DNA from: an uncultured Alphaproteobacteria bacterium
GTDB lineage: Bacteria > Pseudomonadota > Alphaproteobacteria > Rhizobiales > Hyphomicrobiaceae
NCBI GenBank assembly: GCA_963840425.1
Contig: CAWIYZ010000021.1
Span: 21,075 to 85,074, forward strand
Reading direction: 5' to 3'
DNA length: 64,000 nt
Part shown: one piece after another, positions 17,207 through 33,623 of the stretch
How the letters are laid out: every line of letters begins with the position of its first letter
How positions within the stretch are numbered: the stretch's first letter is position 1
Made by a program: the position numbers and the translations under genes
The notes under the pieces: model-generated
What the model was told of the DNA's origin: nothing
What the model saw: the letters and a program-made list of their open reading frames with translations, nothing else
The model's database searches: none

Positions 17207-17256
17207 CTTGTCCTCCGCGCTACAAACGCGTGCGAGTCTAAAGCAGGATCAATCGT

Positions 17257-18126: not shown

Positions 18127-18150
18127 TGCGATATTGCCGCCCGAAATGGC

Positions 18151-19122: not shown

Positions 19123-19184
19123 TGAAATCGGATCTCGCAAATGCACCGCTATACGGGAGTAGCGCCGGCTGACAGGATGCGCCC

Positions 19185-19973
19185 CTACTTGTGCAACACG
19201 CAGTAAATATCTCCCGAATTGGCGTCGTGCGGCAGGCCCTCGATGTGCAGCTGCATCTCGGTGGCTGTGACCCAATGGTCGAAACTAAGTGCGTGGTCCT
19301 CGCCCAGCGACAAATCAAATCGATAGTCGCCCAGGCCCATCATGTGGTCCAGGCAGCGCACCGCCACATCGCGCTGGATGGTCGTGAACTCGAATGACAA
19401 GGCGGGGAGTTGCACCGAAAGTCCGGCCAGAACGTCGGCCTCGAAACCTTCCACGTCGATCTTGGCGAACTGTGGCAGCCCATGCTCGGCGACCAGCGCA
19501 TCCAGTGTCGTCACCGGCACATCGACGGCCTGGTCCCAGACCTGTCCCTCCCAGCCGTCGGCACCGTCCGCGGCTTTCAGGAACTCCGCGGAGGCGGTGG
19601 TGACCGTAGGATTGCGAGTATTGATGTGCAGCGTGAGCGTGCCCGGCCGAGGACCACACGCCGCTTCACGTACGGTGACCTCCGGGTCGTCGGCATAAAT
19701 CGCCCTGATCGCGCGCGCACATAGAGGCTGCGGCTCGAGCGCGACGACACGGGCGCCCAGCCTGCGAAAGCTGCCGATCCGATCGCCGACATGCGCCCCG
19801 ATATCGAAGGCAAGTTGGCCCGGCTCCAGAAAGCGGGCATAGAGCGCGTCCATAGCCGCGTCGCGACTAGGATCCCCGTAGTAGACCTCCAAAGAGCGCT
19901 TCAGGCTCGCGAACGCCGGATCACCCTTGAGCGCATCTATCGTGGTTCGGCCTGCCATGTACGGCTCATGCAT
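19185..19973 (-). CDS. FkbM family methyltransferase
   Basis: FDIGAHVGDRIGSF (SAM motif I) and FAKIDVEGFE motifs. The start is ambiguous (20033, 19973 or 19958). I chose 19973, which overlaps the opgH stop by 8 nt. Confidence 0.7.
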   Translation of the reverse strand: MHEPYMAGRTTIDALKGDPAFASLKRSLEVYYGDPSRDAAMDALYARFLEPGQLAFDIGAHVGDRIGSFRRLGARVVALEPQPLCARAIRAIYADDPEVTVREAACGPRPGTLTLHINTRNPTVTTASAEFLKAADGADGWEGQVWDQAVDVPVTTLDALVAEHGLPQFAKIDVEGFEADVLAGLSVQLPALSFEFTTIQRDVAVRCLDHMMGLGDYRFDLSLGEDHALSFDHWVTATEMQLHIEGLPHDANSGDIYCVLHK

Positions 19974-21774
19974 TCTCTGCCAGCCCGATGGCCTTGATCT
20001 CTGCGGGAGGCGAGAAGTCCTCCGGGATGCCACACAGACCGAGCTTCTGGAAAAACCGCCCGAGCGCCGGCGCGGCCGTCAGCACCGCAAACGGAATAGC
20101 CACCAGATAACCCGCCGTTAGCGGCAGGCTCCACCAGAACACCGCAGGCTCTATCAGTAGCAGTGCCCCGCAGACGATGATGCCGAACAGTGTCTGTGGC
20201 CACAGGTTCTCCACCGCGGTGCGCCACGAAATGCCGTAGGCATCGCGCGACTGGCCGCCCCAGACGACCGATTTGCCGAACATCAGGCCGATCATGAAGA
20301 TGGTCGTGCGAATGGTGGAGACAGCACCCTGCAGGAAGGAGAACACCAGCTCGATCGCCGCACCGGCTGCGAAGCGAGCGAAACCGCCGTAACGCGCCAT
20401 GCCGCCGCGTGTCAGCACCACGTCTATGAGTCCGGCGATCTTCGGCATCAGGTACATGGTGAAAAACACGATGTAGAGGCCGATGGCCAGATCGGTCGGA
20501 AAGCTCGCGACGCTGCTGGCCTCCCAGGCTGCCGCCGGCAGCAGCGCGATCATCAGCGTCCACGCGGGAATGCCGAGGAACATGAGAATCGCCCACACGA
20601 GCTGAAAGCGGCTCATGGGGTACAGCGCCGGCGTGTCCAGCAGCTTGATGTATTGCATGTTGCCCTGGCACCAGCGCACATCGCGCTTGGCGAAGTCGAG
20701 CATGGTCGGGGGATTTTCCTCCCAGCTGTCGTTCTCGACCGGGAGGACGCGCACCTCGTAGCCGGCACGGCGCATGAAGGTCGCCTCGACCTGGTCATGC
20801 GAGAGCACGTGTCCGCCTAGTGGCGGCTTGCCGGGCAGCATCGGCAGTTCGCACTGCTCATGAAATGGCTTGAGGCGCACCACGGCGTTGTGGCCCCAGA
20901 ACGGTCCGCAGTCGCCGACCCACCAGGCTTGCCCCATGGTGTAAGAGCGCATGCCGTGCCGCATGCCGAACTGGAAGATGCGCGCGAAAGCCGATGACGA
21001 CGGCATGCCCACGACCAGGCTCTGCAGGATGCCGATCTTGGGGTGCGCCTGCATCATGCGCACGAGGCGGACGATGGCCGGTCCCGACATCAGGCTGTCG
21101 GCGTCGAGCGGCAGCATCAGCTCGTAGTCCTTGCCCCAGCGGGCGCAGAAGTCGCGCACGTTGCCAGCCTTGTATCCGGTGTTGTCGGTGCGCCGGCGAT
21201 ACGTGATGCGCGCGCGATCGGGGTCGTCCGCACGCCAGGCTGCAACAGTTTGCTCTTCGGCTTCCGCGACAGCGGGATCGTTCGTATCGGAGAGCACGAA
21301 ATAGCTGAATGTGCCTCCCTCGCCGGTCGCATCCACGCTGGCTTTGACGGTTCTGAGACGCAGAATGGCGCGCGCAGGATCCTCGTTGCGCAGCGTCATG
21401 AAGATCGCGGTCTTGATGCGCAGCCGAGCCGGATCTTCCCCAGCCACAGCATAGGGGGCGACCTGGGCCATCGAGCCTTTGTTGAAGTGCAGCAGCCAGA
21501 GGCCGATCAGCGCATTCCAGAACCCGAGCACGGTCCAAGGAGTACCGGCGGCGAAGCAGAGGTAAAGAACGACATCGACAATCGTCCACCCGCCGGCGCC
21601 CAGAATGCGCCCGGCCGCCCACATCATGGCCAGCCACGTCACGACATTGAGGATGATGACAATTCGGCGCCGGCGGGCCAGTTCCGCGTTTGCTTGTAGG
21701 CCAGTCGGTGTCGTAAGGGTCAAGGCCCCCGGCGCGAGCCCGGCGGGTGAGGACGTGTCGATGGTTTCACTCAT
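19966..21774 (-). CDS. opgH: Glucans biosynthesis glucosyltransferase H (osmoregulated periplasmic glucan synthase)
   Basis: ORF 19966-22170; ATG at 21774 (MSETIDTSSPAG). It has N-terminal TM helices, a GT2 core (RRTDNTGYKAGN, LPLDADS), the RDVRWCQGNMQY motif and C-terminal TM helices. Confidence 0.85.
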   Translation of the reverse strand: MSETIDTSSPAGLAPGALTLTTPTGLQANAELARRRRIVIILNVVTWLAMMWAAGRILGAGGWTIVDVVLYLCFAAGTPWTVLGFWNALIGLWLLHFNKGSMAQVAPYAVAGEDPARLRIKTAIFMTLRNEDPARAILRLRTVKASVDATGEGGTFSYFVLSDTNDPAVAEAEEQTVAAWRADDPDRARITYRRRTDNTGYKAGNVRDFCARWGKDYELMLPLDADSLMSGPAIVRLVRMMQAHPKIGILQSLVVGMPSSSAFARIFQFGMRHGMRSYTMGQAWWVGDCGPFWGHNAVVRLKPFHEQCELPMLPGKPPLGGHVLSHDQVEATFMRRAGYEVRVLPVENDSWEENPPTMLDFAKRDVRWCQGNMQYIKLLDTPALYPMSRFQLVWAILMFLGIPAWTLMIALLPAAAWEASSVASFPTDLAIGLYIVFFTMYLMPKIAGLIDVVLTRGGMARYGGFARFAAGAAIELVFSFLQGAVSTIRTTIFMIGLMFGKSVVWGGQSRDAYGISWRTAVENLWPQTLFGIIVCGALLLIEPAVFWWSLPLTAGYLVAIPFAVLTAAPALGRFFQKLGLCGIPEDFSPPAEIKAIGLAENA

Positions 21775-21873
21775 GCAGTTTTGGCCTGTCGGCCCCGGCG
21801 GTCGCGTGCATAGATGATGAAAGCGGCCAAAGCAAGCAACACATCCGTGCGCCGCTCGGCCGGGCGGTTGAGG

Positions 21874-22845
21874 ATGGCACGCGCTGTCTGGTATGTCCGC
21901 AAAGGGGCCGTCGAGCTGCGCACTGCTCAGGTGCCGCCGCCCGGTCCCCATGAGGCGCTGGTCAGAACGCTTTTCAGCGGTATCAGCCGGGGTACAGAGC
22001 GTCTCGTTCTCAATGGCGGGGTGTCGGCTGGTGAGCGTGAGCGCATGCGCGCGCCGCTGCAGGAAGGCGCGTTTCCGTTCCCCGTCAAGTACGGCTATTG
22101 CGCCGCCGGAATCGTGGAGGACGGGCCGAAGGAGCTCGCTGGTCGCTCGGTTTTCTGCCTGCACCCGCACCAGGAGTATTTCGTCGCGCCGGTCACGATG
22201 CTGGTGCCGCTTCCCGACGGCCTTCCGCCCCGCCGGGCGACGCTGGCCGCCAATATGGAGACGGCCCTCAATGCGGTCTGGGATTCAGGCGCAGGTCCGG
22301 CGGACAGGATCGTGGTGGTTGGTGCCGGCGTGGTCGGCCTGCTCATCGGTTACCTCGCAGCCTGTTTGCCGGGCAGCGAGGTCACGCTGGTGGATGTCGC
22401 AGCGGCACGGGCCGATCTGGCGCGGCAGCTTGGAGTTCGATTTGCGGGACCTGAGGCGGCACCGAAGGACGCCGATGTCGTCTTTCACACCAGCGCGACG
22501 GCGGCAGGATTGGATACGGCCATAGCCGCGGCCGGCATGGAGGCAACGGTTGTGGAGGTGAGCTGGTATGGCGACAGCTCCGTGTCCGTCAATCTGGGCG
22601 GCGCGTTCCACAGCCGCCGCCTGAAACTGGTCTCCTCCCAGGTCGGCCAGGTGTCGCCGTCCCGGCGTCCGCGCTGGGACTATCGCCGCCGCCTTGAAGC
22701 GGCCTTGGGCCTGCTGCAAGACCCCACGCTCGACGCGCTGGTGAATGAAGAGATTCCATTCGAGGACACGCCGAAGGCGCTGCCGGCGGCGTTGGCGCCG
22801 GGCGCCCGCGGGCTGGCGCCGGTGATCCGCTATCCGGGAGCATAG
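21874..22845 (+). CDS. MDR-superfamily (zinc-ADH-like, BchC-like) dehydrogenase
   Basis: ORF 21814-22845; ATG at 21874 (MARAVWYVRKGAVEL). It has a GroES-like N-terminus and a Rossmann VVVGAGVVGLL motif. The position of the catalytic-zinc Cys motif reads SGISRGTE. Confidence 0.75.
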   Translation: MARAVWYVRKGAVELRTAQVPPPGPHEALVRTLFSGISRGTERLVLNGGVSAGERERMRAPLQEGAFPFPVKYGYCAAGIVEDGPKELAGRSVFCLHPHQEYFVAPVTMLVPLPDGLPPRRATLAANMETALNAVWDSGAGPADRIVVVGAGVVGLLIGYLAACLPGSEVTLVDVAAARADLARQLGVRFAGPEAAPKDADVVFHTSATAAGLDTAIAAAGMEATVVEVSWYGDSSVSVNLGGAFHSRRLKLVSSQVGQVSPSRRPRWDYRRRLEAALGLLQDPTLDALVNEEIPFEDTPKALPAALAPGARGLAPVIRYPGA

Positions 22846-22849
22846 GAGC

Positions 22850-23257
22850 TTGCAGATGTACGCCGTCGAGGTTCGCGATCGAATCATGATCGCCCACAGC
22901 CTGCCCGATCCGTTCTTCGGGCCAGCCCAGGGCATGCACGGCGCCACCTTCGTCGTCGACGTCGCATTCTTCCGCGAGCAATTGACCAAGCAGAACGTTG
23001 TCGTCGATATCGGTGCGGCGTTGGAGGTGCTGAACAGGACGCTGAAACCGCTGGGGTACAAGAACCTCGATGCGTTGCCGGAGTTCAAGGGCAAGCTGAC
23101 CACGACGGAATTCCTTTGCCGGCATATTTTCTATGCCGTCGCCAAGGCAGCGCGCGAGGGTGCGCTCGGGGATGACGGCAAGGGCCTCTCCAAGATCCGC
23201 GTGACGCTCGGCGAGACGGATCTGGCGCGCGCCTGGTTCGAGGGGCCCATCGGCTGA
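22850..23257 (+). CDS. 6-pyruvoyl-tetrahydropterin synthase (PTPS/QueD) fold protein, non-canonical active site
   Basis: 135 aa. The IAHSLP...GMHGATFVVDV pattern aligns by eye to the QueD AAHRLP...CGRLHGHSF motif. The start lies 4 nt after the upstream stop. Confidence 0.7.
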   Translation: MQMYAVEVRDRIMIAHSLPDPFFGPAQGMHGATFVVDVAFFREQLTKQNVVVDIGAALEVLNRTLKPLGYKNLDALPEFKGKLTTTEFLCRHIFYAVAKAAREGALGDDGKGLSKIRVTLGETDLARAWFEGPIG

Positions 23258-23260
23258 GCC

Positions 23261-24307
23261 GTGACCGACGCCGTCTTCGCCATACCCGGTGATATCGACC
23301 TGCCGACGGGCGGATACGCCTACGACCGCCGCGTGCTGGCGCTGCTGCCGGCCGCGGGGGTGAAGGTACAGCACCTCGAGCTGCCGGGGTCGTTTCCCGC
23401 GCCGAGTGAAAGCGATCTGACCGAGTCCGGTCGCAGGCTCGCCACCGCGTCCGCAAAGGCCGTGCTCCTGATCGACGGGCTCGCCTATGGCGCAATGCCG
23501 GCTGATGTCATCCGCCGCGCCAACGCTCCGATCGTCGCACTCGTGCATCATCCGCTGTGCCTGGAAGCCGGTTTGACACGGGTCAGGCAAAGAGAGCTAC
23601 ACACACTGGAGCAAGGCGCACTCCGTTTAGCGGCGCATGTCATCGTTACCAGCGCGACGACTGCACAAGCCTTGACAGCGGATTTTGGGGTGCCGGCCAG
23701 CAGGATCACGGTTGCTGTCCCGGGCACGGACGCAGCGCCGCGCGCGAAGGGAACGGGCAAGCCGCTGCAGCTTCTAGCCGTCGGCTCGGTTGTGCCGCGC
23801 AAGGCCTTCCACGTTCTCGTGCATGCGCTGGCTCCCTTGTCCGACCTCGATTGGCGTCTCAGCATTGTCGGATCGCTGGACCGCAGCGTTGCAGCGCCGG
23901 CAACGCTCAAGGACGCGATCGCGCAGAGGGGGCTCGAGGATCGCATCATGCTGGTCGGCCCCGCGAACCAGGGGCAGCTCGATGCGCACTATGATGCCGC
24001 CGACATTTTCGCCATGCCGTCTCTGTACGAAGGGTATGGCATGGTGCTGGCCGAGGCGATGGCGCGCGGGTTGCCGATCGTCTGCACCACGGGCGGAGCT
24101 GCTGCAAGCACGGTGCCTGATGCCGCCGGCATTAAAGTCCCGCCTGGAGACATCGAGGCATTCAGCGGCGCCATCGGCCACCTCATGAGCGATCCGGGGC
24201 TGAGACGGGATATGGCCGAGGCGTCTTGGACCGCGGGCCAGGCGCTGCCACGGTGGGAGGCGACGGCGAAGCAGATTGCAGAGGTTCTGCGGAGGGCAGT
24301 CGCATGA
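23261..24307 (+). CDS. Glycosyltransferase family 4 (GT-B, group 1)
   Basis: C-terminal PSLYEGYGMVLAEAMARGLPIV (EX7E-type) motif. GTG start 3 nt after the upstream stop. Confidence 0.8.
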   Translation: MTDAVFAIPGDIDLPTGGYAYDRRVLALLPAAGVKVQHLELPGSFPAPSESDLTESGRRLATASAKAVLLIDGLAYGAMPADVIRRANAPIVALVHHPLCLEAGLTRVRQRELHTLEQGALRLAAHVIVTSATTAQALTADFGVPASRITVAVPGTDAAPRAKGTGKPLQLLAVGSVVPRKAFHVLVHALAPLSDLDWRLSIVGSLDRSVAAPATLKDAIAQRGLEDRIMLVGPANQGQLDAHYDAADIFAMPSLYEGYGMVLAEAMARGLPIVCTTGGAAASTVPDAAGIKVPPGDIEAFSGAIGHLMSDPGLRRDMAEASWTAGQALPRWEATAKQIAEVLRRAVA

Positions 24308-25137
24308 GCGGATTTTCGCCGGAGTGGCTTGCACTGCGGGAGCCCGTAGATCATCGCTCACGCAGCAGCGATATTGCCCAGGCGCTGGCGGCACGCTTTC
24401 AGAAACGGCAGAAGATAACGGTCGTCGACCTCGGCTGCGGCACCGGCTCTAACCTGCGCGCGACGATGAGTTTATTGCCTTCCGAGCAGCAGTGGACGCT
24501 CGTTGATTTTGACGAGCAACTGCTTGCCGTCGCCAAACGCACGTTGATGGACTGGGCTGACCGCGCGGAAGCGGACGCTGACGGGCTTCTGCTCGATAAG
24601 GACGGCAAGCGGATCGCCGTCCAGTTCCAGCGCGCCGATCTCAACCGTGATCTCGACAGTGCACTCGGGCTGAAGCCTGATCTCGTTACCGCGGCGGCGC
24701 TGTTCGATCTGTGCTCGCCCGCGTTCATCAAGGCGTTCGCCAGGGCGGTTGCCGCTCGGCGGGCGGTGTTCTGTACTGTGCTCACGTACAACGGCATTCA
24801 GCGGTGGACACCGCGGCAGCCGAGTGATGGCGCCATGATCGCCGCCTTCCACGCCCATCAGATGACCGACAAGGGATTCGGGTCATCAGCAGGCCCGACC
24901 GCGCCGGCACACCTCGCCGACGCCTTTCGCCTGTCAGGCTATTCGGTCTCGGAAGGCGAGAGCCCGTGGGAGCTGAGCGCTGGCAACATCGACTTAGTCC
25001 GCAACCTCGCCTCGGGCTTCGCCGATGCAGTTGCCGAAACCGGCAAGGTCGATACCAAGACGATCGACGCGTGGCGCCGGGTCGTGCGCACGGGCGCGGT
25101 CGTCGGCCACACGGACACGCTGGCCACGCCCGCTTAA
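24304..25137 (+). CDS. Class I SAM-dependent methyltransferase
   Basis: ORF 24226-25137; ATG at 24304 overlaps the GT4 stop (ATGA). Motif I is VVDLGCGTGSN. Confidence 0.7.
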   Translation: MSGFSPEWLALREPVDHRSRSSDIAQALAARFQKRQKITVVDLGCGTGSNLRATMSLLPSEQQWTLVDFDEQLLAVAKRTLMDWADRAEADADGLLLDKDGKRIAVQFQRADLNRDLDSALGLKPDLVTAAALFDLCSPAFIKAFARAVAARRAVFCTVLTYNGIQRWTPRQPSDGAMIAAFHAHQMTDKGFGSSAGPTAPAHLADAFRLSGYSVSEGESPWELSAGNIDLVRNLASGFADAVAETGKVDTKTIDAWRRVVRTGAVVGHTDTLATPA

Positions 25138-25139
25138 GC

Positions 25140-25712
25140 TCAGCGGCGCAGGCTCGGCAGCATGCGCGTCAGCACATTGTCCTTGCGTATCAGGTAGTGA
25201 AACATGGCGGCGCCGAAATGCACTGCGACCATGGCCACTAGTAGCATCGCAAACCAGAAGTGCAGCCAGAAGGTTACGCCGGCCGCGTCCTGATTGGCCG
25301 AAACGAGACCCGGCAGAGAAATGCCGAACGCACTGAGCGCGGGGTATTGGGAGATGCCGATGTATCCAAGGAGTGGCACCAACAGCAGCAGGGCGTAGAG
25401 GCTCCAGTGATTGAGATGGCTGGCGATCTTCTGCCACCACTCGATGGTCGGCTCATCGGCCGGAGCGCCATGTATGAGACGATAGAGGAGCCGGGCAAGA
25501 ACGACGAAGAAGATGACGATGCCGATCAGCTTGTGGCTGCTGTAGAGATTGTTGGTGAGATCGTCGAAGATACCGAGCACGTTACCGCGATAGGCCATGT
25601 AGAGCCCGAGCGGCACCTGGATCACCACGAGAACGACGGTCCACCAGTGGAAACGCCGCGCCGTAGGACTATAGAGTTCCACCTGAGTTTCCTGGGTCGA
25701 AGTCCGCGCCAT
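25140..25712 (-). CDS. Cytochrome b561 family protein (CybB-like)
   Basis: Four TM helices with conserved His (RRFHWW, SHKLIG, HLNHW, WLHFW...AVHFGAAMFH). The start lies 2 nt after the upstream RibD_C stop. Confidence 0.8.
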   Translation of the reverse strand: MARTSTQETQVELYSPTARRFHWWTVVLVVIQVPLGLYMAYRGNVLGIFDDLTNNLYSSHKLIGIVIFFVVLARLLYRLIHGAPADEPTIEWWQKIASHLNHWSLYALLLLVPLLGYIGISQYPALSAFGISLPGLVSANQDAAGVTFWLHFWFAMLLVAMVAVHFGAAMFHYLIRKDNVLTRMLPSLRR

Positions 25713-25714
25713 GG

Positions 25715-26437
25715 TCAGCCCCCTTTTTGCTGATTTCTCAGGTCACAGTCGAATAGCACATCGCCGTCCGGCAGCACATGCACTTCGGTTACTGGTCGTA
25801 ACGCCTGAGACAGGGATTGGATCGGCTGGAGTGACAACCCCGGCTTGCCTGATCCGAGAATGACCGGGGCCACCAGCACATGCAGCCGATCCACCGCGCC
25901 GGCATCCAGGAAGGCGGAGATGGTGCGCGCACCGCCTTCGATCAGAAACGATTTGAGGCCAATGCTCCACAAGGCAGTGATGACGGATCGCGGCGGCAGC
26001 ACGCCGTTCTCCGGCATGACCCGGACGACCTCGATGCCGTCGATGTCGGCGCCACCCTCGGAGCGCACCACGATGCGGCGAGCGCCGTCGTCTGCGAGGC
26101 ATTTGGCCTGTAACGGTGCACGACCGGACGGGTCGATGACGACGCGCGCCGGGTGGCGCCCGGCCACGCGCCGTACGTTGAGACGCGGATCATCGGCAAC
26201 GACGGTGCCGACGCCGACAACAACCGCGTCCACCGCAGCGCGCAGGCTATGTACATGATTTAACGCGCATTCCCGGTTGATCCACTGGCTCTCCCCGGAC
26301 AGCGTCGCAATGCGTCCATCCAGAGATTGACCGAGTTGCGCCACGACAAAGGGCCGATCGCGGGGCGCCTGCATCACACGGCCAATGGCGGCGTCGGCGG
26401 TCGGGTGATGCGGCATCTCGCCGGAGCGATCGTTCAT
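25715..26437 (-). CDS. RibD C-terminal (reductase-only) domain protein
   Basis: ORF 25715-26761; ATG at 26437 (MNDRSGEMPHH). AQLGQSLDGRIA, VVVGVGTVVADDPRLNVR and FLIEGGARTISAFL are typical of the pyrimidine reductase domain. There is no CMP/dCMP-type deaminase domain. Confidence 0.75.
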   Translation of the reverse strand: MNDRSGEMPHHPTADAAIGRVMQAPRDRPFVVAQLGQSLDGRIATLSGESQWINRECALNHVHSLRAAVDAVVVGVGTVVADDPRLNVRRVAGRHPARVVIDPSGRAPLQAKCLADDGARRIVVRSEGGADIDGIEVVRVMPENGVLPPRSVITALWSIGLKSFLIEGGARTISAFLDAGAVDRLHVLVAPVILGSGKPGLSLQPIQSLSQALRPVTEVHVLPDGDVLFDCDLRNQQKGG

Positions 26438-26566
26438 TGGCTGGACCCGGGGCGCCGTGGCGAGCCTGAAGGCGGAGTTCGAAAGACAGTCGGCCCGGCG
26501 TTCCAAGTCAAGTGCTATAGAAGCGCCGTGGCGGTTTGATGAAACCATGGAGGGGATGAACGATAC

Positions 26567-28931
26567 ATGAGGCGGCCCGGACATCGGTTGCCGGATGTAG
26601 GTTTGCGCGAGCTGTCGGGCCGAGGCGCGCTCCTTGCCGATAGGCCGGAAAAGAGCTCGCCTTGGCTGCTGTGGCCAGTTGTCCTTGCATTCACGGCCTG
26701 CTTTGTCGCCATGACATGGCCTTGGCTTACCGGGCAGGTCACGAATTCCCTGGGATGCCAAAGCCCATTTCCAGCCGCAGATCCAGTTTCTGGCCGATAG
26801 CTTGGCGCGCGGCGAGTGGCCGTTCTGGAATCCCTTCGTGTTTTCCGGTCAGGTGCAGATCGCCGACCCGCAGTCGATGATTTTTTCCCCGCCGTTCCTG
26901 TTGCTGGCGCTGACCAATTCTCGGCCGAGCCTGTGGGCCGTTGATGCCACGGTGCTGGCTTCTATGTTTGGCGGTGGTGTGGCTCTGCTCGCCTGGTTTC
27001 GCGACCGAGGCTGGCACTGGGCCGGCGCGCTGATCGCGGCCATTGCCTTCAGCTTCGGAGGGGCGATGGCGTGGCGCATCCAGCACATCGGCCAAGTGCT
27101 GAGCCTCGCCTATCTACCCTTGGCGCTGCTCTGCCTCGACCGGGCGATCGGGCGGGCCTCGGCAACCTGGGGTGCGGCGACGGGCATCGTTGTCGGGTGC
27201 ATTGTTCTCGGTCGCGACCAGGTGGCGCTGTTGTGCGTCTATCTGCTCGCGGCTTATGCGATCTGGCAGTTGGCCACGAGCGCCGACCTTCGTTCCGGAC
27301 TAGCTCGGCGTGTGGCCGCGCTCGGGATAGGCGCCGTGACCGGGTTGGCATTGATTGCTATTCCCATAGTGCTCACCGCACTGCTGGCCGGCGGCTCCAA
27401 CCGCCCGGCAATCGACTTCATCGGCGCGGGGCGCGGTTCCCTGCACCCGGCGCTGCTGCTGACAGCTCTGATGCCCGATGTGTTCGGCGCGGCCGGCGAC
27501 ATGCAGGACTATTGGGGACCGCCGAGCTTCGCCTGGCGCGATACGGACCTGTTCATCGCCCAGAATGTGGGCCAGCTCTACATCGGCGCCATTCCGTTCC
27601 TGCTGGTCATGAGTGCGCTCGTACGCGGACGGTTATGGGAGAAGGAGGTTCGCTTCTTCCTGATCGCCGCAAGCATCATGCTGCTCTATGCGCTTGGTTG
27701 GTTCACACCAGCCTTTCGGCTCATGTATGCGCTCATGCCGGGCGTCAACCTGTATCGACGGCCGGCTGATGCCGTGTTTCTCGTCGGTGCTCTCGGAGCG
27801 ATTCTTGCCGGCTATGCAGCGCATTTATTGTTTTCCCGACCGTGGGATCGCCCTACGCAGAAGCATCTCGCCCTTTTAGCCGGGATCGTTCTGGCCGCAT
27901 TCGTGGTGGCCGTGTTTGTGGGGCTGCTGATCGGCCGTGTGGGCCGAGTATGGGTGCCGATCTTTAGTGCCGTGCTTTTTCTCGGTGCAGGGACGCTCGC
28001 GCTCGCCTGGGCGCGCGGCAGAATTGCATTGGAGCCGTTGCTGGCAGCGGGCGTTCTAGCCGGACTCACGAGTGTCGATCTTGCCTGGAACAACGGTCCC
28101 AACACTTCCTCGGCTCTACCGCCGGCTCATTATGATGTGCTCGAGCCCACGACAGACAACGCGACGATCGCGCTGCTCAAAGCGAAAGTCGAGGCGGGCG
28201 AAGCGCGGCGGGATCGAATCGAGCTTGCAGGCCTCGGCTTCCATTGGCCCAACGCCAGCATCACACATCGCCTGGAAAATACGCTCGGCTACAATCCGCT
28301 GCGGCTCGGCCTCTACAGTAGTGCGACCGGTGCGCAGGACCACGTGGGTCTGCCGGACCAACGTAAGTTCGCTCCACTCATGCCATCCTATCGCTCGCGC
28401 ATGGCGGACCTGTTGGGTTTGCGATTTATTGCAACCGGCGCACCAGTCGAGCAGATCGACACGCGTTTGAGGCCGGGTGACTTGTCATTCATCGCCCGCA
28501 CGGCCGACGCCTACGTGTACGAGAATCCCAGGGCGCTGCCTCGCGTCCTGTTCGCGGGGAGCGCCCGCAAGGTTGATTTCGACGAGCTGATCAAGACCGG
28601 CGCCTGGCCCGAGTTCGATCTAACGCGGACGGTCTTGATCGAGCAAGTCGAGGAGCGTGTGGAGCGCCGGCCGGGTAGTGCGGCGATCAGATCCTACGGG
28701 AACACCGATATCGTCATCGACGCTGATAGTCCGGACGGCGGATGGGTGGTGCTCAACGATGTGTGGCATCCCTGGTGGACTGCCACACTCAATGGCCGCG
28801 ATGCGCAGCTCCTGCGAGCCAACGTGCTTTTCCGGGCGGTGCAAGTCCCGCCCGGGAGGCAAGTCGTTCGTTTTACATTCAGGCCGCTATACGGCGCGTG
28901 GGCCGAGCTGACCGGGCGGACCCGTCACTGA
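26567..28931 (+). pseudogene. Large polytopic membrane protein, GT-C / YfhO-like (possibly the PTPS_related family), with a +1 frameshift near the 5' end
   Basis: The main ORF 26802-28931 (709 aa, many TM helices) extends upstream in-frame to 26715 as IPWDAKAHFQPQIQFLADSLARGEWPFWNPF. ORF 26567-26800 supplies a first TM helix (LLWPVVLAFTACFVAMTWPWLTGQVT). The two frames join if one A of the AA run at 26744-26745 is skipped. The span is 3n+1 nt. Confidence 0.65.
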
Positions 28932-28943
28932 GGCCGGCATGCC

Positions 28944-29606
28944 TCAGAGTTGGTGCGCCATGCGCTCCTTCTTGGTCGACAGGTAGCGCTTGTTGTGCGG
29001 AGTTGGCTCGCAGATCACGGGCAGCCGCTCTACAACGACGATGCCCGCGGCACGCAAGGCATCGACCTTGGCCGGATTGTTGGTCAGCAGCTTGATCTTC
29101 GGGAAGCCGAGGTCGAATAGAATCTGCGCTGCCAGATTGTAGTCGCGCGCGTCGATGGGCGCGCCGATCTCGACGTTGGCGTCGACCGTGTCGAGCCCTT
29201 GATCCTGCAGAGCATAGGCCTTGATCTTGTTGACGAGACCAATCCCGCGCCCCTCGTGGTAGGGCAGATAGAGCAGAACCCCGTTCGGCACGCGGGTGAT
29301 ATGCGCCATCGCCGCCTGAAGCTGGGCGTAGCAGTCGCAGCGCAGCGAATGGAAGATGTCGCCAGTCACGCAACCGCTGTGCACGCGCACCACCGGCAGC
29401 ACGGCACTGTCATCCTCATACTCGTTGATCAGCGCCAGAGCCTGGCAGTTCGGATCCAATCCCTGGTAGGCGCGAGCCTCCAGGTTCAGCTCACGGCCTT
29501 GAAACTCGATAGGCAAAATCGTCTGCGCGGTCCAATCGACATCCAACTTGATTGATTTCACTGCACTCGATCTCATCCGCGCCTCCAGACGAAACGCCAG
29601 GCGCAT
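28944..29606 (-). CDS. ribA: GTP cyclohydrolase II
   Basis: Zinc/catalytic motifs RVHSGCVTGDIFHSLRCDCYAQL, YHEGRGIGLVNKIKAYALQDQGLDTVDAN and LLTNNPAKV. An alternative start is at 29576. Confidence 0.85.
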   Translation of the reverse strand: MRLAFRLEARMRSSAVKSIKLDVDWTAQTILPIEFQGRELNLEARAYQGLDPNCQALALINEYEDDSAVLPVVRVHSGCVTGDIFHSLRCDCYAQLQAAMAHITRVPNGVLLYLPYHEGRGIGLVNKIKAYALQDQGLDTVDANVEIGAPIDARDYNLAAQILFDLGFPKIKLLTNNPAKVDALRAAGIVVVERLPVICEPTPHNKRYLSTKKERMAHQL

Positions 29607-29849
29607 ATGCCATCACGGCACTGGCCACGTAAAGGCGTTGCTTTGTTCATTAGTCGGTTCACACGGTGGGTGTGCGAGAGCTCCGCATTCACGATCGACG
29701 ATGAAGTCGCAGTCCCACTTTGTTTCGGCTTTGCTCGTTAACCATCACCTCGTCCCACCCGATGTCGCGCTCAGGTAAGCTTATCTTTGCTGAACCACAG
29801 ATGAATGCCATGGGGAGCCGGATAGTCGTTCTGATGTCGTGCAAGGTCT

Positions 29850-30281
29850 TCAACGGCGTCCGCGAAAGACGCCAAAGCGCATGGCCAGATAAGAGAAGAC
29901 CGCTGCCACGATTGAGGCCAGAACAAGCGCAGCTAGTGGCCATGTCTCGGGCCGCAAAAGCAAAATTGATGCGAACGTCCCGTAGTTTATGGCTGCTGCG
30001 GTCCACGCCATAGTCGCATAACGGGCAAATTCAGTAGCGGTCGGACGCGACTGCAGTGCAAAGGTCAAGGTGCGGTGGGAAAGCCAGCCCGCAACCATGG
30101 CTATGCCGATGGCGAGCAGCCTTGCCAGTAACGGATGGAGATGCAGCAGCCGGATGCCGGCCTCCAGGATAGCCCCATCGACCAGGAGGGCGATCAAGCC
30201 CGAGGCGATGAAGCCGCCCCAATGCGCGGCGACTGAGCGTCGCCCGTTGCCGTCGGCTGGAGCAACACCCTCGCCCGTCAT
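29850..30281 (-). CDS. GtrA family membrane protein (polyprenyl-phosphate sugar flippase-like)
   Basis: 143 aa with four predicted TM helices and GtrA-like spacing (GGFIASGLIALLVD ... WLSHRTLTF). The start lies 3 nt after the upstream stop. Confidence 0.7.
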   Translation of the reverse strand: MTGEGVAPADGNGRRSVAAHWGGFIASGLIALLVDGAILEAGIRLLHLHPLLARLLAIGIAMVAGWLSHRTLTFALQSRPTATEFARYATMAWTAAAINYGTFASILLLRPETWPLAALVLASIVAAVFSYLAMRFGVFRGRR

Positions 30282-30284
30282 GCC

Positions 30285-31166
30285 TCAGACTCGCTTCCAG
30301 TCGACGGGCGGACCATCCGTCTGGCGCTCCGGCCGCCACAGGAGGGAAGGCAGGGCCGCATAGCGCGCGATCGCGTCATACTCGTCCCCCCTCCGCGCGA
30401 GAATAGGATCGATCTCGCGTAGCGTGCCATCAACGTGGCCGGGGTGGCACATAATGAGGTGGCGCTCTGTTGTAGCCGACAATGCCGCAGTGAGCTCCCG
30501 CGTGTAGGACTTGCGGTGATCGAAGGAGGAAACTCCCGCAAAGCTCGTATTGATGATGAAGCCAAGCGCGTGTGCCGCACGGCCAAATCCGAAAGAGAGA
30601 AGGGCAATCAACAAGGACTTACCCACGGCTGAGTTGCGCGCGAAGACCTTCGACGGATCGTCCGCTGGATTGCGCACCAGCGGCAGTCGGTCGGGAAAGT
30701 AAGCGGCTAGTGCCGCAAGAACCCCGTCCCGCACTCTCGGCAGTGCATGGACATGTTGATGGCCATCGACATGATCCGGCGCAAAGCCAAGCTCGGTTTC
30801 GAAGCGCGCGAGCTGGCGCGTAACCTCAGCGGCGATCTCGTCGCCATGGACGCGGCGCGAGAGCGCCAGCGTGAGGAGCGTGCGGAGGCTGGGTAAGCGG
30901 CCGTCGGGGGCAACGGACGGCATCGGTCCAAGGGGGGCGCCGAACGTCAAATTGATGTGCAGACCAACGGCAATGCGGTCGCGGACTGCGCGCAGCCGCC
31001 GTGCGTCCTCAGGCCAACGGTCGAGAGTGACAATGGCGCTGGTCGCGGAAAGTCTCTCACGTCCGGCAAGCTCCAGAATCGCCTCCGAGATGCCCGCACC
31101 CATTGCATAGTCATCGGCGCAAAGAATGACCTGATGCCGGCCTTCGCGAGCAGGTGCCCCTGTCAC
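30285..31166 (-). CDS. ChbG/HpnK/YdjC family carbohydrate deacetylase
   Basis: ILCADDYAM (Asp pair) and HVDGHQHVH motifs. ATGA overlap with the upstream GT2 gene. Confidence 0.8.
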   Translation of the reverse strand: MTGAPAREGRHQVILCADDYAMGAGISEAILELAGRERLSATSAIVTLDRWPEDARRLRAVRDRIAVGLHINLTFGAPLGPMPSVAPDGRLPSLRTLLTLALSRRVHGDEIAAEVTRQLARFETELGFAPDHVDGHQHVHALPRVRDGVLAALAAYFPDRLPLVRNPADDPSKVFARNSAVGKSLLIALLSFGFGRAAHALGFIINTSFAGVSSFDHRKSYTRELTAALSATTERHLIMCHPGHVDGTLREIDPILARRGDEYDAIARYAALPSLLWRPERQTDGPPVDWKRV

Positions 31167-32221
31167 TGCTCGGCGCCCTTTGCGCTCGCCGATGGCTTGT
31201 CCAGGGTGGCGGCGGTCAGGTTGCCGACGGTCTCGGCCACGATGAACAGCGGTCGGCCCTTCACCTCCTCGTACACACGCCCGAGGTATTCACCGATGAC
31301 GCCCAGTGAAATGAGCTGCACGCCAGCGAAAAACATGACGGAGACGATGAGCGATGGAAAACCCGGAACGTCAATACCATAGAGAAGCGTCGTGACCAGA
31401 ACCACCAGCGAGTAGAGGAAGGCGCAGGCCGCCACCAGGAGTCCCAGGTAGGACCAGACGCGCAGCGGCATCGTTGTGAACGAGGCGAGGCCATCGAGGG
31501 CAAAATGCAACAGCTGGCGCGGGCGCCAGCGTGATTGCCCATCGCTGCGCATCTCCACATCATAGGGCACGCCGATCGACTTGAATCCGATCCAGGCATA
31601 GAGGCCCTTGTTGAAACGGGCGCGCTCGCCCATGCGGTTGAGGACATCTATCGCTTTGCGGTCGATCAAACGGAAATCTCCCGCACCGTCGGGCAGCTCC
31701 GTGCCAGAAACCGATCTGAAGACCTTGTAGAACGTGCGTGCCGCCCATCTATGGAGCGCCGTGTCGGTCTGCCGGTCCGTCCTCTGCCCATAAACGATGT
31801 CGAAGCCGTCATCCCATCGCGCTACAAACTCGGTGATCAGCTCAGGAGGGTGCTGCAGATCACCGTCCATCACCACCGCAGCATCGCCCGATGCGAATCT
31901 GAGACCCGCGGCTACGGCGACCTCCTTGCCGAAGTTGCGGCTGAGCGACACGGCCTTGAAGCGGGCGTCACGGTCATGCAAAGCGCGCAATGCGTAGAGC
32001 GTGGCGTCTGTGGAGCCGTCGTCGATGAAAATCACGTCCCAAGTCCGGCCGAGCGGCTCCAATGCGGCTCGCAATCGCTCCTCCAGTGCCGTCAGGCCGC
32101 CAGCCTCGTTGAGAACGGGGATCACGACGGTGAGGGATCGCTTCCCTGCCTTTGTTGTCGCCCCGTCATCACCATGACTCCCGGAATGGGTCTGCAGCAC
32201 GGTTAAGGCCTCCAGTTTCAT
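31163..32221 (-). CDS. Family 2 glycosyltransferase, polyprenyl-phosphate glycosyltransferase type (ArnC/GtrB/DPM1-like)
   Basis: ORF 31163-32329; ATG at 32221 (MKLEALTVLQ). Motifs VVIPVLNE, IFIDDGSTD and VVMDGDLQHPPE, followed by two C-terminal TM helices. Confidence 0.8.
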   Translation of the reverse strand: MKLEALTVLQTHSGSHGDDGATTKAGKRSLTVVIPVLNEAGGLTALEERLRAALEPLGRTWDVIFIDDGSTDATLYALRALHDRDARFKAVSLSRNFGKEVAVAAGLRFASGDAAVVMDGDLQHPPELITEFVARWDDGFDIVYGQRTDRQTDTALHRWAARTFYKVFRSVSGTELPDGAGDFRLIDRKAIDVLNRMGERARFNKGLYAWIGFKSIGVPYDVEMRSDGQSRWRPRQLLHFALDGLASFTTMPLRVWSYLGLLVAACAFLYSLVVLVTTLLYGIDVPGFPSLIVSVMFFAGVQLISLGVIGEYLGRVYEEVKGRPLFIVAETVGNLTAATLDKPSASAKGAEQ

Positions 32222-32360
32222 GTGCGCGTCATGTAGTGGATTTGAGCGCAATGCAGAAGCTCTGCCGGGCTTCGGGCAGAGGTCGAGGTGTAAGGCCCTC
32301 CACTGTGAGGTTCGGCTTCTTCCCGGCAATATGCATTTAGAATTGTTCTAACTATGCCGT

Positions 32361-33605: not shown

Positions 33606-33623
33606 TCCCGCAGTTTCTCGATG

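Follow-up and report, generated by a model that had tools for sequence, protein, structure and literature searches.

A Hyphomicrobiaceae locus links an uncharacterised dehydrogenase–PTPS-like–GT4–methyltransferase cassette to a YfhO-family membrane protein

A previously described counterpart of the locus analysed here is the SCO6650/SCO6655 neighbourhood of Streptomyces coelicolor, one member of which has been solved structurally (PDB: 3D7J, function unknown). Spoonamore and colleagues reportedly found in 2008 that the SCO6650 family lacks PTPS activity, and an enzymatic study of SCO6650/SCO6655 is said to have assigned no function. GTP cyclohydrolase II (GCHII) is able to feed pterin synthesis via an Amadori-type step (PMC4161248), and NaxD is a YdjC-family deacetylase that acts on undecaprenyl-P-GalNAc (PMC11279074). 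OPG substituents are known to derive from the head groups of membrane phospholipids (PMC3818809). The window, the whole 64,000-nucleotide stretch of Hyphomicrobiaceae DNA analysed, was compared with 80 genome loci, all of which belong to the Hyphomicrobiales, so that shared descent, and not selection, may account for part of the synteny. Locus counts refer to 41 species-level loci anchored on the dehydrogenase gene (ADH).

The eleven genes of the preliminary description are all present, in the order and with the domains given there, as determined by Pfam and NCBIfam profile searches; the membrane glycosyltransferase gene as a single open reading frame and the start of the cluster at position 21874 did not hold. 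The cassette begins on the plus strand with an MDR-superfamily (BchC-like) dehydrogenase (21814/21874–22845), the start of which is either 21814 or 21874. It matches ADH_zinc_N weakly and the BchC profile TIGR01202 with an E-value of 2.6e-13, and its PDB relatives include polyol and polyol-phosphate dehydrogenases. The PTPS-fold (T-fold) protein of the SCO6650 subfamily (22850–23257, plus strand; PF01242, 66.7 bits) matches PDB 3D7J, "uncharacterized protein SCO6650", with an E-value of 1.2e-33. It was ruled out as a canonical PTPS or QueD: HGA replaces HGH, and the catalytic cysteine, the third zinc-binding histidine, and the DHH motif are missing. The C-terminal glutamate is retained and aligns with the ring-anchor residue of QueD. 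The GT4 glycosyltransferase of GT-B fold (23261–24307, plus strand; Glycos_transf_1, 109.8 bits) has Tll1590, the inositol-3-phosphate GlcNAc transferase MshA, and PimB' as its closest solved relatives. Its stop codon is overlapped (ATGA) by the start of a class I SAM-dependent methyltransferase (MT; 24304–25137, plus strand; Methyltransf_25), collinear orthologues of which are present in all cassette loci.

The minus strand carries a stand-alone RibD_C pyrimidine reductase without a deaminase domain (25715–26437; RibD_C, 138 bits; archaeal reductase TIGR01508, 106 bits) and, downstream of it in the same operon, a cytochrome b561 of the CybB/YceJ type (25140–25712; PF01292, 92 bits). Stand-alone GCHII is encoded on the same strand (28944–29606; PF00925, 177 bits). 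The alignment places its probable start at 29576, which extends the gap to the GtrA gene, previously given as 243 nt, to about 273 nt. The protein keeps a tyrosine at the position of E. coli Y105 (KIKAYALQ), as do all alphaproteobacterial copies checked, none of which has a creatininase gene nearby; the copy in the Streptomyces cluster has a methionine there and adjoins a creatininase-family gene. Read from the sequences, this Tyr/Met pattern and its creatininase context point to the same intermediate. The intergenic region upstream of GCHII (29607–29849, minus strand) contains a conserved box, GGCATTCATCTrTGGTTCAGCAA, which is kept in L012, L015, and L001, the last of which has no GtrA gene, and which may be GCHII's own promoter or operator. 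The upstream region has no Rfam match and no convincing RNA fold, and neither an FMN nor any other riboswitch was found with Rfam.

The gene of the YfhO-family GT-C membrane glycosyltransferase (26567–28931, plus strand) is interrupted by a 1-nt insertion at 26744. The interval is 2365 nt long, which is not a multiple of three, the N-terminal 60 codons sit in a different frame, and the ORF listing shows only 26802–28931. Aligned with the L084 contig, which is 99.62% identical across 17.5 kb, the window reads ACGAATTCC versus ACG-ATTCC; the extra A, which directly precedes an invariant IPWD motif, is probably an assembly error, judging from the alignment. An intact homologue of 780 residues (P0001) is 99% identical. 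The identification of the gene as a GT-C stands, and its intact reading frame does not. The AlphaFold2 model (pTM 0.79) has ArnT, STT3, PglB, AftD, and EmbB as its top Foldseek matches, and PF09586 is matched by 26 of the 27 GT-C family members, which bears out the proposed assignment to the YfhO family; the window protein itself falls below the Pfam threshold (YfhO 13.4 bits versus a cutoff of 28.5). Membership in PTPS_related (PF10131), which had also been suggested, finds no match in the profile search.

The remaining genes form a module on the minus strand. It comprises a GT2 polyprenyl-phosphate glycosyltransferase of the ArnC/GtrB/PgfS type (31163–32221; PF00535, 107 bits; PgfS NF047588, 298.7 bits; ArnC NF007986, 178 bits), the C-terminal segments of which are hydrophobic when read by eye, a NaxD-like YdjC-family deacetylase (30285–31166; PF04794, 150.7 bits), and a small GtrA-family membrane protein (29850–30281; PF04138, 55 bits), a putative flippase for a polyprenyl-phosphate sugar. 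The module had been taken as integral to the unit, but it is unlinked in most related genomes and lies beside the cassette in only 3 of the 41 loci. In L016 and L036 it is on the opposite side of the cluster. By analogy, it looks like an optional aminosugar donor module of the NaxD/Lgm type.

On its left, the conserved cluster continues beyond 21874 to OpgH/MdoH and an FkbM-family methyltransferase. The gene for the OpgH/MdoH periplasmic-glucan glucosyltransferase (19966–21699, minus strand; NF003963, 935.7 bits versus a cutoff of 884) falls outside the interval 21874–32221 described before. It diverges from the dehydrogenase gene, and no other neighbour is as constant (37 of 41 loci); a gene annotated mdoH adjoins the cassette in Methylosinus trichosporium OB3b. 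An ABC neighbour matches ChvA/NdvA (NF010178, 796 bits versus a cutoff of 733). The FkbM methyltransferase gene (19185–20033, minus strand; Pfam Methyltransf_21, TIGR01444) recurs in 24 of the 41 loci; in Rhizobium SSA_523 and Palleronia, too, it adjoins the cassette. A protein without assigned function that adjoins OpgH (18151–19122, minus strand) has a signal-peptide-like N-terminus, as read by eye, and no match in Pfam or NCBIfam; its gene is present in 19 of the 41 loci, and its single-sequence AlphaFold2 model is unusable (pLDDT 33). An HAD-family phosphatase (17257–18126, plus strand; Pfam Hydrolase_6/Hydrolase_like) is a peripheral, recurrent neighbour (14/41) and a possible candidate for dephosphorylating a phosphorylated intermediate.

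The dehydrogenase, PTPS-like protein, GT4, and methyltransferase, often joined by RibD_C–cytochrome b561 and GCHII, constitute a cassette found in Hyphomicrobiales, Rhodobacterales, a Chromatiaceae plasmid, Streptomyces, and Micrococcales. PTPS is present in 34 of the 41 loci, GT4 in 33, MT in 32, b561 in 20, RibD_C in 19, GCHII in 16, and YfhO in 14. This recurrence across species-level loci is above chance, and the right-flank genes for M20 peptidase and CysNC occur in 0/41. Identities to the Streptomyces orthologues are 50% for ADH, 48% for PTPS, 38% for GT4, 32% for MT, and 43% for GCHII; RibD_C is absent from the Streptomyces locus. Consecutive ribA-ADH-PTPS-MT-RibD genes on a single strand in Palleronia support the earlier proposal that GCHII, RibD_C, PTPS-like protein, dehydrogenase, GT4, and MT form one recurrent unit. 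Ca. Thiodictyon has the order ADH-PTPS-GT4-MT-cyt b-RibD-CDP-OH transferase, all on the same strand, and collinear cassettes also occur in Microbacterium, Agrobacterium pAt, Rhizobium, and Methylosinus OB3b. Pairing of b561 with RibD extends to Agrobacterium, Rhizobium, and Thiodictyon. The linkage of the cassette survives rearrangement, as in L011 and L056 (MT-GT4-PTPS-FkbM-OpgH|ADH), in L016 and L036, and in the GCHII-YfhO arrangement of Beijerinckiaceae.

The cassette usually adjoins membrane-lipid or glucan enzymes. Actinomycetota, Rhizobiaceae, and Thiodictyon all have a CDP-alcohol phosphatidyltransferase next to it, accompanied by an MprF-type flippase in the first two but not in Thiodictyon; the Hyphomicrobiales partners are OpgH, the ChvA-type exporter, and the YfhO-like GT-C. 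The different lipid-carrier enzymes of other phyla fit a cytoplasmic product that is handed to the envelope. Rhodobacterales cassette loci contain no membrane enzymes and have ribokinase or PfkB kinases nearby, and YfhO is absent within 10 kb in 23 of 39 PTPS-containing loci; therefore, envelope coupling is not universal.

We consider it about evenly balanced whether the cassette makes a glycosylated, methylated GTP-derived compound with a 2-amino-4-oxo-pyrimidine (pterin-like) ring that is handed to membrane machinery. The chemistry of each step is proposed from gene content, linkage, and fold. GCHII would convert GTP to 2,5-diamino-6-(5-phosphoribosylamino)pyrimidin-4-one, a step assigned because of family membership and the retained tyrosine. 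The deaminase-less RibD_C, judged by its family, would turn the ribosyl into a ribityl group, yielding a polyol 5'-phosphate, and the MDR dehydrogenase may re-oxidise a hydroxyl of the side chain. The T-fold protein of the SCO6650 type could bind and rearrange or cyclise the product, possibly to a dihydropterin, after which the MshA/PimB'-like GT4 would add a sugar and the methyltransferase(s) would methylate it. The product would be joined to a lipid carrier and displayed at the periplasmic face, and in the Hyphomicrobiaceae lineage the YfhO-type GT-C would perform the periplasmic step; Hyphomicrobiaceae loci have no obvious enzyme for attaching it to a polyprenyl or phosphatidyl carrier. GT2-YdjC-GtrA would provide a deacetylated polyprenyl-phosphate aminosugar donor. 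OpgH and the ChvA-type glucan exporter are constant neighbours, which makes a periplasmic glucan or some other envelope component the likely target. The co-transcription of cytochrome b561 suggests redox activity of the product at the membrane. Since membrane enzymes for envelope modification surround the cassette, the probable fate of the compound is export or lipid anchoring, and not the role of an ordinary vitamin.

Alternatively, two independent systems may be neighbours, with GT2-YdjC-GtrA and the GT-C forming a self-contained NaxD/Lgm-like system that modifies LPS, glucan, or some other envelope polymer with an aminosugar, and the cassette making an unrelated soluble metabolite. This arrangement, which we regard as possible but rather doubtful, agrees with the distant YfhO homologues (44–47% identity) that adjoin GT2-YdjC-GtrA or YdjC alone, without a cassette, in L104, L122, L149, and L105, with the lack of YfhO in most cassette loci and phyla, with the scarcity of the GT2 module, and with the conservation of GCHII's own upstream region even where GtrA is missing. 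One genome (L003, L022) has a b561-YfhO pair about 170 kb from an OpgH-ADH pair without PTPS, GT4, and MT, so YfhO can work without a nearby cassette. However, cassette genes are present in 17 of the 18 YfhO-anchored loci of the closer subfamily (at least 51% identity), none of which has GT2 or YdjC nearby, and among ADH-anchored loci YfhO occurs with PTPS in 16 and without it in 0. GCHII lies immediately upstream of YfhO and co-directional with it in nine Beijerinckiaceae-type loci, and the two ORFs overlap in L034. The divergent b561-YfhO pair persists alone in L003, L088, L093, and others, and the lipid-carrier enzymes that accompany the cassette in other phyla argue for the membrane as its general destination. 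The linkage of the GT-C to the cassette is genuine, and the 17 loci of the closer subfamily uphold its earlier placement in one unit with the GTP-derived gene set.

The first two activities of the riboflavin pathway belong to GCHII and RibD_C, and in Chlamydia GCHII and an isomerase can bypass FolE (PMC4161248). The cassette might represent a paralogous or alternative pathway to an ordinary cofactor, leading either to extra riboflavin or lumazine capacity or, independently of GTP cyclohydrolase I, to dihydroneopterin for folate or another pterin, with unrelated membrane genes, as the Rhodobacterales versions near kinases and without membrane partners would allow. We find such a route improbable: a deaminase domain, lumazine synthase, DHBP synthase, and riboswitch are all missing from the cluster, and the constant GT4 and methyltransferase, as well as cytochrome b561, would be left unexplained. 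The PTPS-like protein also lacks the catalytic residues and motif listed above, and its family is said to be without PTPS activity. Another scheme, modelled on the formation of mycothiol and bacillithiol (a GT4 of the MshA/BshA type, followed by a phosphatase and then a deacetylase), pairs YdjC with GT4 instead of GT2. GT4, the best characterised relatives of which are MshA and BshA-type enzymes, would add GlcNAc to a polyol phosphate, the HAD enzyme would dephosphorylate it, and YdjC would deacetylate it in the cytoplasm. YdjC is cytoplasmic, and phosphatases of the HAD or IMPase family are recurrent neighbours of the cassette, but YdjC always accompanies an ArnC-like GT2, with overlapping genes, and usually GtrA, almost all cassette loci lack YdjC, and the GT2/GtrA/GT-C context fits the NaxD precedent (PMC11279074), which leaves this scheme little likelihood.

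The envelope-linked functional unit proposed in the preliminary description thus retains the cassette and the GT-C but not GT2-YdjC-GtrA, and its product and mechanism are proposals drawn from the genes. Together with the GTP-derived product and its transfer to the membrane, the interpretation of the locus as a widespread, uncharacterised cassette in a form elaborated in Hyphomicrobiaceae has, in our estimate, an even chance of being correct. The view in the preliminary description that no characterised system has this composition holds only in part: the SCO6650/SCO6655 neighbourhood of S. coelicolor contains the same cassette, although no function has been assigned to it. The donor role of GT2-YdjC-GtrA would resemble those of Francisella NaxD and Bordetella Lgm.

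The cluster comprises eleven genes, the order and strands of which were recovered from a listing of open reading frames and from Pfam and NCBIfam scans as the preliminary description had given them. The window has a G+C content of approximately 63 %. The plus strand carries an MDR (BchC-like) dehydrogenase (ADH, 21814/21874–22845), a PTPS-fold protein (22850–23257), a GT4 (23261–24307), and a class I methyltransferase (MT, 24304–25137). Cytochrome b561 (25140–25712) and a RibD_C reductase (25715–26437) follow on the minus strand, and a large membrane protein is encoded on the plus strand (26567–28931). The minus strand then contains GTP cyclohydrolase II (GCHII, 28944–29606), GtrA (29850–30281), a YdjC deacetylase (30285–31166), and an ArnC/PgfS-like GT2 (31163–32221). 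Except for the large membrane protein, the genes were assigned from Pfam and NCBIfam matches. Inside each strand block, neighbouring genes touch or share a few bases.

A gap had been described between GtrA and GCHII with a length of 243 nt; the gap is present, but it spans approximately 273 nt when counted from the likely GCHII start at 29576, which has a GGAG Shine-Dalgarno sequence 5′ of it and is kept in relatives. The box GGCATTCATCTrTGGTTCAGCAA is located in 29607–29849 on the minus strand, about 180 nt upstream of GCHII, and occurs also in the related loci L001, L012, and L015. It is retained even in a relative that lacks GtrA, and may constitute a promoter or operator that provides GCHII with its own regulation. 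A structured RNA in the GCHII leader was considered and rejected, as the consensus fold of four relatives has an energy of −5 kcal/mol and is without real covariation. The Rfam scan of 17000–36000 returned zero matches at E ≤ 1, and thus no FMN, THF, or other riboswitch was found. The scan for promoters gave 1 where 2.3 were expected, and that for terminators gave 10 where 9.2 were expected; such chance-level counts are unfit for calling operons.

The large membrane protein had been presented as one gene; however, the length of 26567–28931 is not a multiple of three, and its initial 60 codons are out of frame with the sequence from 26745 on. The metagenomic contig L084 is 99.62 % identical to the window along 17.5 kb, and in comparison with it the window contains only four extra bases. 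The A at 26744 is the frameshift of the membrane protein gene, the GG at 29727–29728 is intergenic, and the T at 35977 is part of a TTT run and breaks a histidine kinase gene. The insertions at 26744 and 35977 are probably assembly errors of the homopolymer indel type and not signs of gene decay, because the three insertion events fall into short homopolymer runs and two of them are intragenic. The HisKA/HATPase_c histidine kinase (35568–36528) is split into two open reading frames in the window (35568–36011 and 36013–36528), and is a single gene of 296–304 residues in L084 and L001.

The large membrane protein can be assigned as a divergent YfhO-type GT-C from the profile matches of its family, the fold of a predicted structure, and the motif IPWDAK. 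Once corrected for the frameshift, the window protein reaches 13.4 bits on PF09586 (YfhO), below the cutoff of 28.5. Of its family, 26 of 27 diverse members match the profile at E ≤ 0.01, with a best value of 4e-14, and the homologue P0320 reaches 48.9 bits. There are thousands of homologues, some of which match PF09586 or are listed by NCBI as "YfhO family protein". P0001, an unbroken homologue of 780 residues that is 99 % identical to the window protein, was modelled using AF2 with a pLDDT of 76 and a pTM of 0.79. The model agrees with a GT-C fold, in which a multi-pass N-terminal membrane domain is joined to a periplasmic C-terminal domain. The best 24 Foldseek matches to the PDB are all GT-C enzymes, ArnT being the first (E 1.4e-5), followed by STT3, PglB, AftD, EmbA/B, and PMT, with TM-scores of just 0.2–0.5. 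The motif IPWD(56)AK lies past TM1, in the first loop on the periplasmic side, and is invariant in 25 homologues; across the wider family, this GT-C acidic-loop motif has the form [IV]P[WY]D[AS]K. Its conserved aspartate is predicted to be catalytic. The frameshift directly precedes the motif, and the reading frame in the window is not intact. The assignment as GT-C/YfhO-like made in the preliminary description therefore holds for the family, although the window copy stays below the cutoff, whereas the suggested membership in PTPS_related (PF10131) found no support: the window protein has no match to this profile even at E ≤ 10, and one of the 27 family members matches weakly (E 0.0033).

Two apparent gene fusions were set aside as evidence of linkage. 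The GCHII–YfhO fusion P0363 is a frameshift artefact with a linker of Arg/Pro-rich out-of-frame sequence, and shows adjacency only. P0246 (1032 residues) is a YfhO homologue, 50 % identical, with an in-frame, cytoplasmic class I methyltransferase domain of approximately 230 residues at its N-terminus; this fusion looks real, but the domain is unlike the MT of the cluster.

An ordinary role in riboflavin or folate synthesis was considered for the small-molecule genes. GCHII scores 177 bits on PF00925 and contains HSGC...RCDC, with the zinc-binding cysteines, and KIKAYALQ, with the tyrosine at E. coli position 105, as expected of a RibA. The PTPS-like protein belongs to the T-fold family PF01242 (66.7 bits), with TTTE and VTLxE conserved, and retains a C-terminal glutamate, which we take to be the ring anchor as in QueD. 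However, its zinc motif reads AHS...HGATF, the third histidine being alanine in all 58 sequences and HGH not kept; there is no cysteine in the loop before HG, and YxNLD replaces the DHHYLN of E. coli QueD. The signature motifs of COG0720 include CxxxHGH (PMC5041015). Since the third zinc histidine, the catalytic cysteine, and the DHH motif are missing, the identification as a catalytic PTPS or QueD was rejected, despite the retained glutamate. The only match of the reductase is RibD_C, at residues 137–316 of a long open reading frame in which the real protein has approximately 240 residues; the RibD deaminase domain is absent from it, and the cutoffs of both TIGR00227 and TIGR00326 are missed. 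Profile scans detected no DHBP synthase domain alongside GCHII. The degenerate PTPS-like protein and the absence of a deaminase, a DHBP synthase, and a riboswitch make the ordinary riboflavin or folate role unlikely.

The conservation of the neighbourhood was determined in a dehydrogenase-anchored scan with one genome per species, which yielded at least 506 matches, of which the best 80 loci were analysed. These 80 loci all belong to Hyphomicrobiales except for one contig labelled Bacteroidota, and include Hyphomicrobiaceae, Beijerinckiaceae, Bosea, Devosia, Filomicrobium, Methylobacteriaceae, Methylocystaceae, and Alsobacter. Window proteins were searched by tblastn in the 41 species-level loci having at least 9 kb on either side. 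OpgH (19966–21699, minus strand) was found in 37 of the 41 loci, PTPS in 34, GT4 in 33, MT in 32, FkbM (19185–20033, minus strand) in 24, b561 in 20, RibD_C in 19, GCHII in 16, and YfhO and HAD in 14 each. GT2, YdjC, and GtrA were each present in three, and the M20 peptidase and CysNC of the right flank in none. The OpgH/MdoH gene, which is divergent from and upstream of the dehydrogenase gene, scores 935.7 bits on NF003963 (cutoff 884), and the conserved cluster thus reaches further to the left than the dehydrogenase.

The gene linkage outlasts rearrangement. Beijerinckiaceae-type loci have the order b561–RibD_C / GCHII–YfhO, with GCHII immediately upstream of YfhO, and in L034 the two open reading frames overlap; a flippase-like LPG_synthase_TM gene follows YfhO in loci of this type. 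MT–GT4–PTPS is positioned beyond FkbM–OpgH in L011 and L056, and GT2–YdjC–GtrA is on the opposite side of the cluster in L016 and L036. In some Hyphomicrobiaceae, an ABC exporter follows or replaces YfhO (796 bits versus 733 on the ChvA/NdvA glucan exporter profile). In one genome (L003/L022), a b561–YfhO pair lies approximately 170 kb from an OpgH–ADH pair that lacks PTPS, GT4, and MT.

In the reciprocal, YfhO-anchored scan of metagenomes, likewise counted by tblastn, homologues were split at 51 % identity to the window protein. Of the 18 loci with homologues at least 51 % identical, 17 have cassette genes beside the homologue, and neither GT2 nor YdjC is nearby in any of them. Below 51 %, cassette genes occur in 8 of 37 loci, and 4 of 46 loci (L104, L105, L122, and L149) contain YdjC, in some cases accompanied by GtrA and GT2; GtrA was confirmed in L104. 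A scan of metagenomes seeded with a distant YfhO homologue returned mainly the same alphaproteobacterial family. The proposal that the two gene sets form one functional unit is thus supported for the GT-C and GCHII, which go with the small-molecule genes, but not for GT2–YdjC–GtrA, which is seldom linked to them.

Additional genes recur near the related clusters. A glyoxalase-family gene lies between ADH and PTPS in L001, L012, and L015; in L022 (10986–14952), which shares its contig with L003, such a gene follows ADH and precedes pqqB- and pqqE-like genes (Lactamase_B_2; radical SAM/SPASM). The envelope genes recurring at cluster edges are an HGSNAT_cat (DUF1624) membrane acyltransferase, which adjoins OpgH in Beijerinckiaceae-type loci (L034, 6010–7002), and a WecA/MraY-type Glycos_transf_4 gene, which follows GCHII in L047 (17567–18571). 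The protein encoded at 18151–19122 on the minus strand has approximately 323 residues and an N-terminus resembling a signal peptide, matches neither Pfam nor NCBIfam, and accompanies OpgH in 19 of the 41 loci; its single-sequence AF2 model has a pLDDT of 33. OpgG/OpgD, OpgB, and OpgE are not recognisable at this locus, and, in view of the missing OpgG/OpgD, the protein may be the partner that OpgH has in the periplasm here. In the CysNC-like protein (33624–35255, minus strand), an APS kinase domain is detectable, and of the EF-Tu-like CysN domain only the C-terminal part; the N-terminal 150 or so residues have no match, so that the GTPase domain appears degenerate.

The cassette extends well beyond Hyphomicrobiales. 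The window PTPS-like protein is similar over residues 2–131 of 135 to the Streptomyces coelicolor "uncharacterized protein SCO6650" (PDB: 3D7J; E 1.2e-33), the family of which is strongly conserved in Streptomyces. The similarity over the full length is accompanied by a shared neighbourhood: ADH, PTPS-like, GT4, MT, and GCHII form a collinear core at the SCO6650/SCO6655 locus, with identities of 32–50 %. The Streptomyces order is CDP-alcohol phosphatidyltransferase / ADH–SCO6650-type–GT4–MT–LPG_synthase_TM / creatininase-family / GCHII (slashes separate blocks). The locus differs from the window in its divergent CDP-alcohol phosphatidyltransferase, flippase-like LPG_synthase_TM, and creatininase-family genes, and in having no OpgH, YfhO, RibD_C–b561, or GT2–YdjC–GtrA in the 20 kb read. 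In public RefSeq records (L090 and L166–L170), the SCO6650-type protein is called "6-carboxytetrahydropterin synthase" and carries a queuosine GO term, and the GCHII of the cluster goes by "RibA". Both names are probably over-annotations for this family, considering its gene context and the catalytic residues that it lacks. According to a 2026 review (PMC13151069), the function of one RibA paralogue in S. coelicolor has nothing to do with flavin synthesis. The literature found assigns no function to the cassette, which had been glimpsed before in S. coelicolor, and contained nothing relevant on the gene combination.

Other taxa carry the same core on plasmids and chromids. Methylosinus trichosporium OB3b has mdoH / ADH–PTPS–GT4–MT / RibD, and the gammaproteobacterium Ca. 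Thiodictyon syntrophicum has ADH–PTPS–GT4–MT–cyt b–RibD–CDP-OH transferase on one strand. The Agrobacterium tumefaciens pAt arrangement is "sulfatase" / flippase-like / CDP-OH transferase–GCHII / ADH–PTPS–GT4–MT / RibD–cyt b; Rhizobium SSA_523 is arranged likewise in the part from the flippase-like gene to cyt b, with the addition of FkbM. Microbacterium carries CDP-OH transferase–ADH–PTPS–GT4–MT–flippase-like / RibD, and Palleronia carries ribA, ADH, PTPS, MT, and RibD on one strand, with GT4, an IMPase-family gene, and FkbM upstream. The GCHII position that corresponds to E. coli Tyr105 is methionine in Streptomyces and tyrosine in every readable alphaproteobacterial copy, and no creatininase gene was seen near alphaproteobacterial GCHII. 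Spoonamore et al. in 2006 and Grochowski et al. in 2009 reportedly found that the Met variant halts at a formylated intermediate, which creatininase-family ArfB enzymes deformylate. If so, the Tyr and Met versions would deliver the same diaminopyrimidine nucleotide.

GCHII and RibD_C would together yield 2,5-diamino-6-ribitylamino-pyrimidinone 5′-phosphate, a polyol phosphate. Its re-oxidation and cyclisation could be the work of the MDR polyol-type dehydrogenase and the ring-binding T-fold protein, and the oxidation at C2′ would formally equal the Amadori step of GTP cyclohydrolase I. A precedent for GCHII feeding pterin synthesis exists in Chlamydia (PMC4161248). The closest solved relatives of GT4 include MshA and PimB′, which, judging from the names of their molecules, would act on inositol phosphate and phosphatidylinositol mannoside. 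The CDP-alcohol phosphatidyltransferases of the clusters weakly resemble PgsA, PIP synthase, and archaetidylinositol-phosphate synthase, all of which are known to take polyol phosphates. Together with an MprF-type flippase and the possible Agrobacterium "sulfatase", they would follow the logic of moving phospholipid head groups onto periplasmic glucans; in Hyphomicrobiales, the constant partners are OpgH, the ChvA-type exporter, and the YfhO GT-C. These lipid-enzyme partners elsewhere and the OpgH, ChvA, and YfhO partners in Hyphomicrobiales speak for a product whose final location is the inner membrane, on its outer face, or a periplasmic glucan; in this favoured reading, cytochrome b561 would have a redox role.

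A tentative and rather doubtful proposal for the whole cassette is that it makes a head group derived from GTP that is pteridine-like, glycosylated, and methylated, and which is carried on a lipid and flipped to the periplasmic face, where it either forms a redox-active lipid or is moved onto periplasmic glucans. The carrier would be phosphatidyl, installed by the CDP-alcohol phosphatidyltransferase, in Actinomycetota, Rhizobiaceae, and Chromatiaceae, and the route in Hyphomicrobiales would be polyprenyl- or GT-C-dependent. A dedicated cytochrome b561 would serve the redox-active lipid. The preliminary description, which tied a GTP-derived pyrimidine- or pterin-like product to periplasmic envelope glycosylation, was mostly right in what it observed and partly right in its interpretation.

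If the proposal is true, it would provide a function for the SCO6650/SCO6655 genes, which are still listed without one, and a testable biochemical scheme for a gene set found in Streptomyces, Micrococcales, many Hyphomicrobiales, Rhodobacterales, and a purple sulfur bacterium. The Hyphomicrobiales carriers include the model methanotroph M. trichosporium OB3b and an Agrobacterium plasmid, and one member of the set has a crystal structure. It would also extend GCHII chemistry beyond the flavin and deazaflavin cofactors for which it is best known, and possibly define a new class of redox-active decoration of periplasmic glucans or membrane lipids.

Bacterial pterin glycoside pathways, those of cyanobacterial biopterin glucoside, cyanopterin, and the Chlorobium pterin glycosides, share with the cassette a ring derived from GTP, an enzyme with the PTPS fold, a reductase or dehydrogenase, and a GT-B glycosyltransferase, and cyanopterin has a methylated sugar. 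They start with GTP cyclohydrolase I and a catalytically complete PTPS, whereas the entry here is GCHII with a RibD_C reductase, and the PTPS-like protein lacks the Cys, third His, and DHH. We know of no membrane enzymes in the cyanobacterial and Chlorobium pathways. The substitution of osmoregulated periplasmic glucans (OPGs), performed by OpgH with OpgB and OpgE, resembles the cluster in that a true OpgH is its most constant neighbour and a ChvA/NdvA-type exporter recurs; to our knowledge, a GTP-derived OPG substituent has never been described. In the cassettes of other lineages, the logic of OPG decoration is represented by the CDP-alcohol phosphatidyltransferase, the flippase-like protein, and the Agrobacterium membrane protein annotated as "sulfatase". 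Phospholipid head groups are a known source of OPG substituents (PMC3818809). The Sulfatase match of the Agrobacterium protein is below threshold (E 0.007).

The membrane genes have two close counterparts. The cluster and CsbB–GtcA–YfhO, the three-component GtrA/GtrB/GT-C glycosylation of Firmicutes, each combine a GT2 that synthesises a polyprenyl-phosphate sugar with a GtrA-family protein and a GT-C of the YfhO family; the cluster differs in being proteobacterial, with a very divergent YfhO branch and an extra deacetylase. These Gram-negative bacteria are not expected to have teichoic acids, which serve as acceptors in Firmicutes. The systems that modify lipid A with carrier-bound aminosugars, namely FlmF2–NaxD–FlmK of Francisella, LgmA–C of Bordetella, and Arn (ArnC/ArnD/ArnT), are similar in their parts: an ArnC-like GT2 whose C-terminal segments are hydrophobic, a deacetylase of the YdjC family, a candidate for a small flippase, and a GT-C. 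These parts are all found together here and again beside distant YfhO homologues in L104 and L149. An HpnI/HpnK (hopanoid) identity of GT2–YdjC was rejected, as the HpnK score is 53.8 bits where 232 would be required. The GT-C here is of the YfhO type and not the ArnT type, ArnT being a fold match only (TM-scores 0.38–0.51), and, unlike in the NaxD, Lgm, and Arn systems, the module lies within a GTP-derived cassette and adjoins OpgH. NaxD is a member of the YdjC superfamily that deacetylates undecaprenyl-P-GalNAc (PMC11279074), and lgmA–C are needed for the presence of GlcN on Bordetella lipid A (PMC4993483). GT2–YdjC–GtrA corresponds to the NaxD/Lgm route to a polyprenyl-phosphate aminosugar, and the most suitable view of it is that of an optional module supplying a donor to the GT-C.
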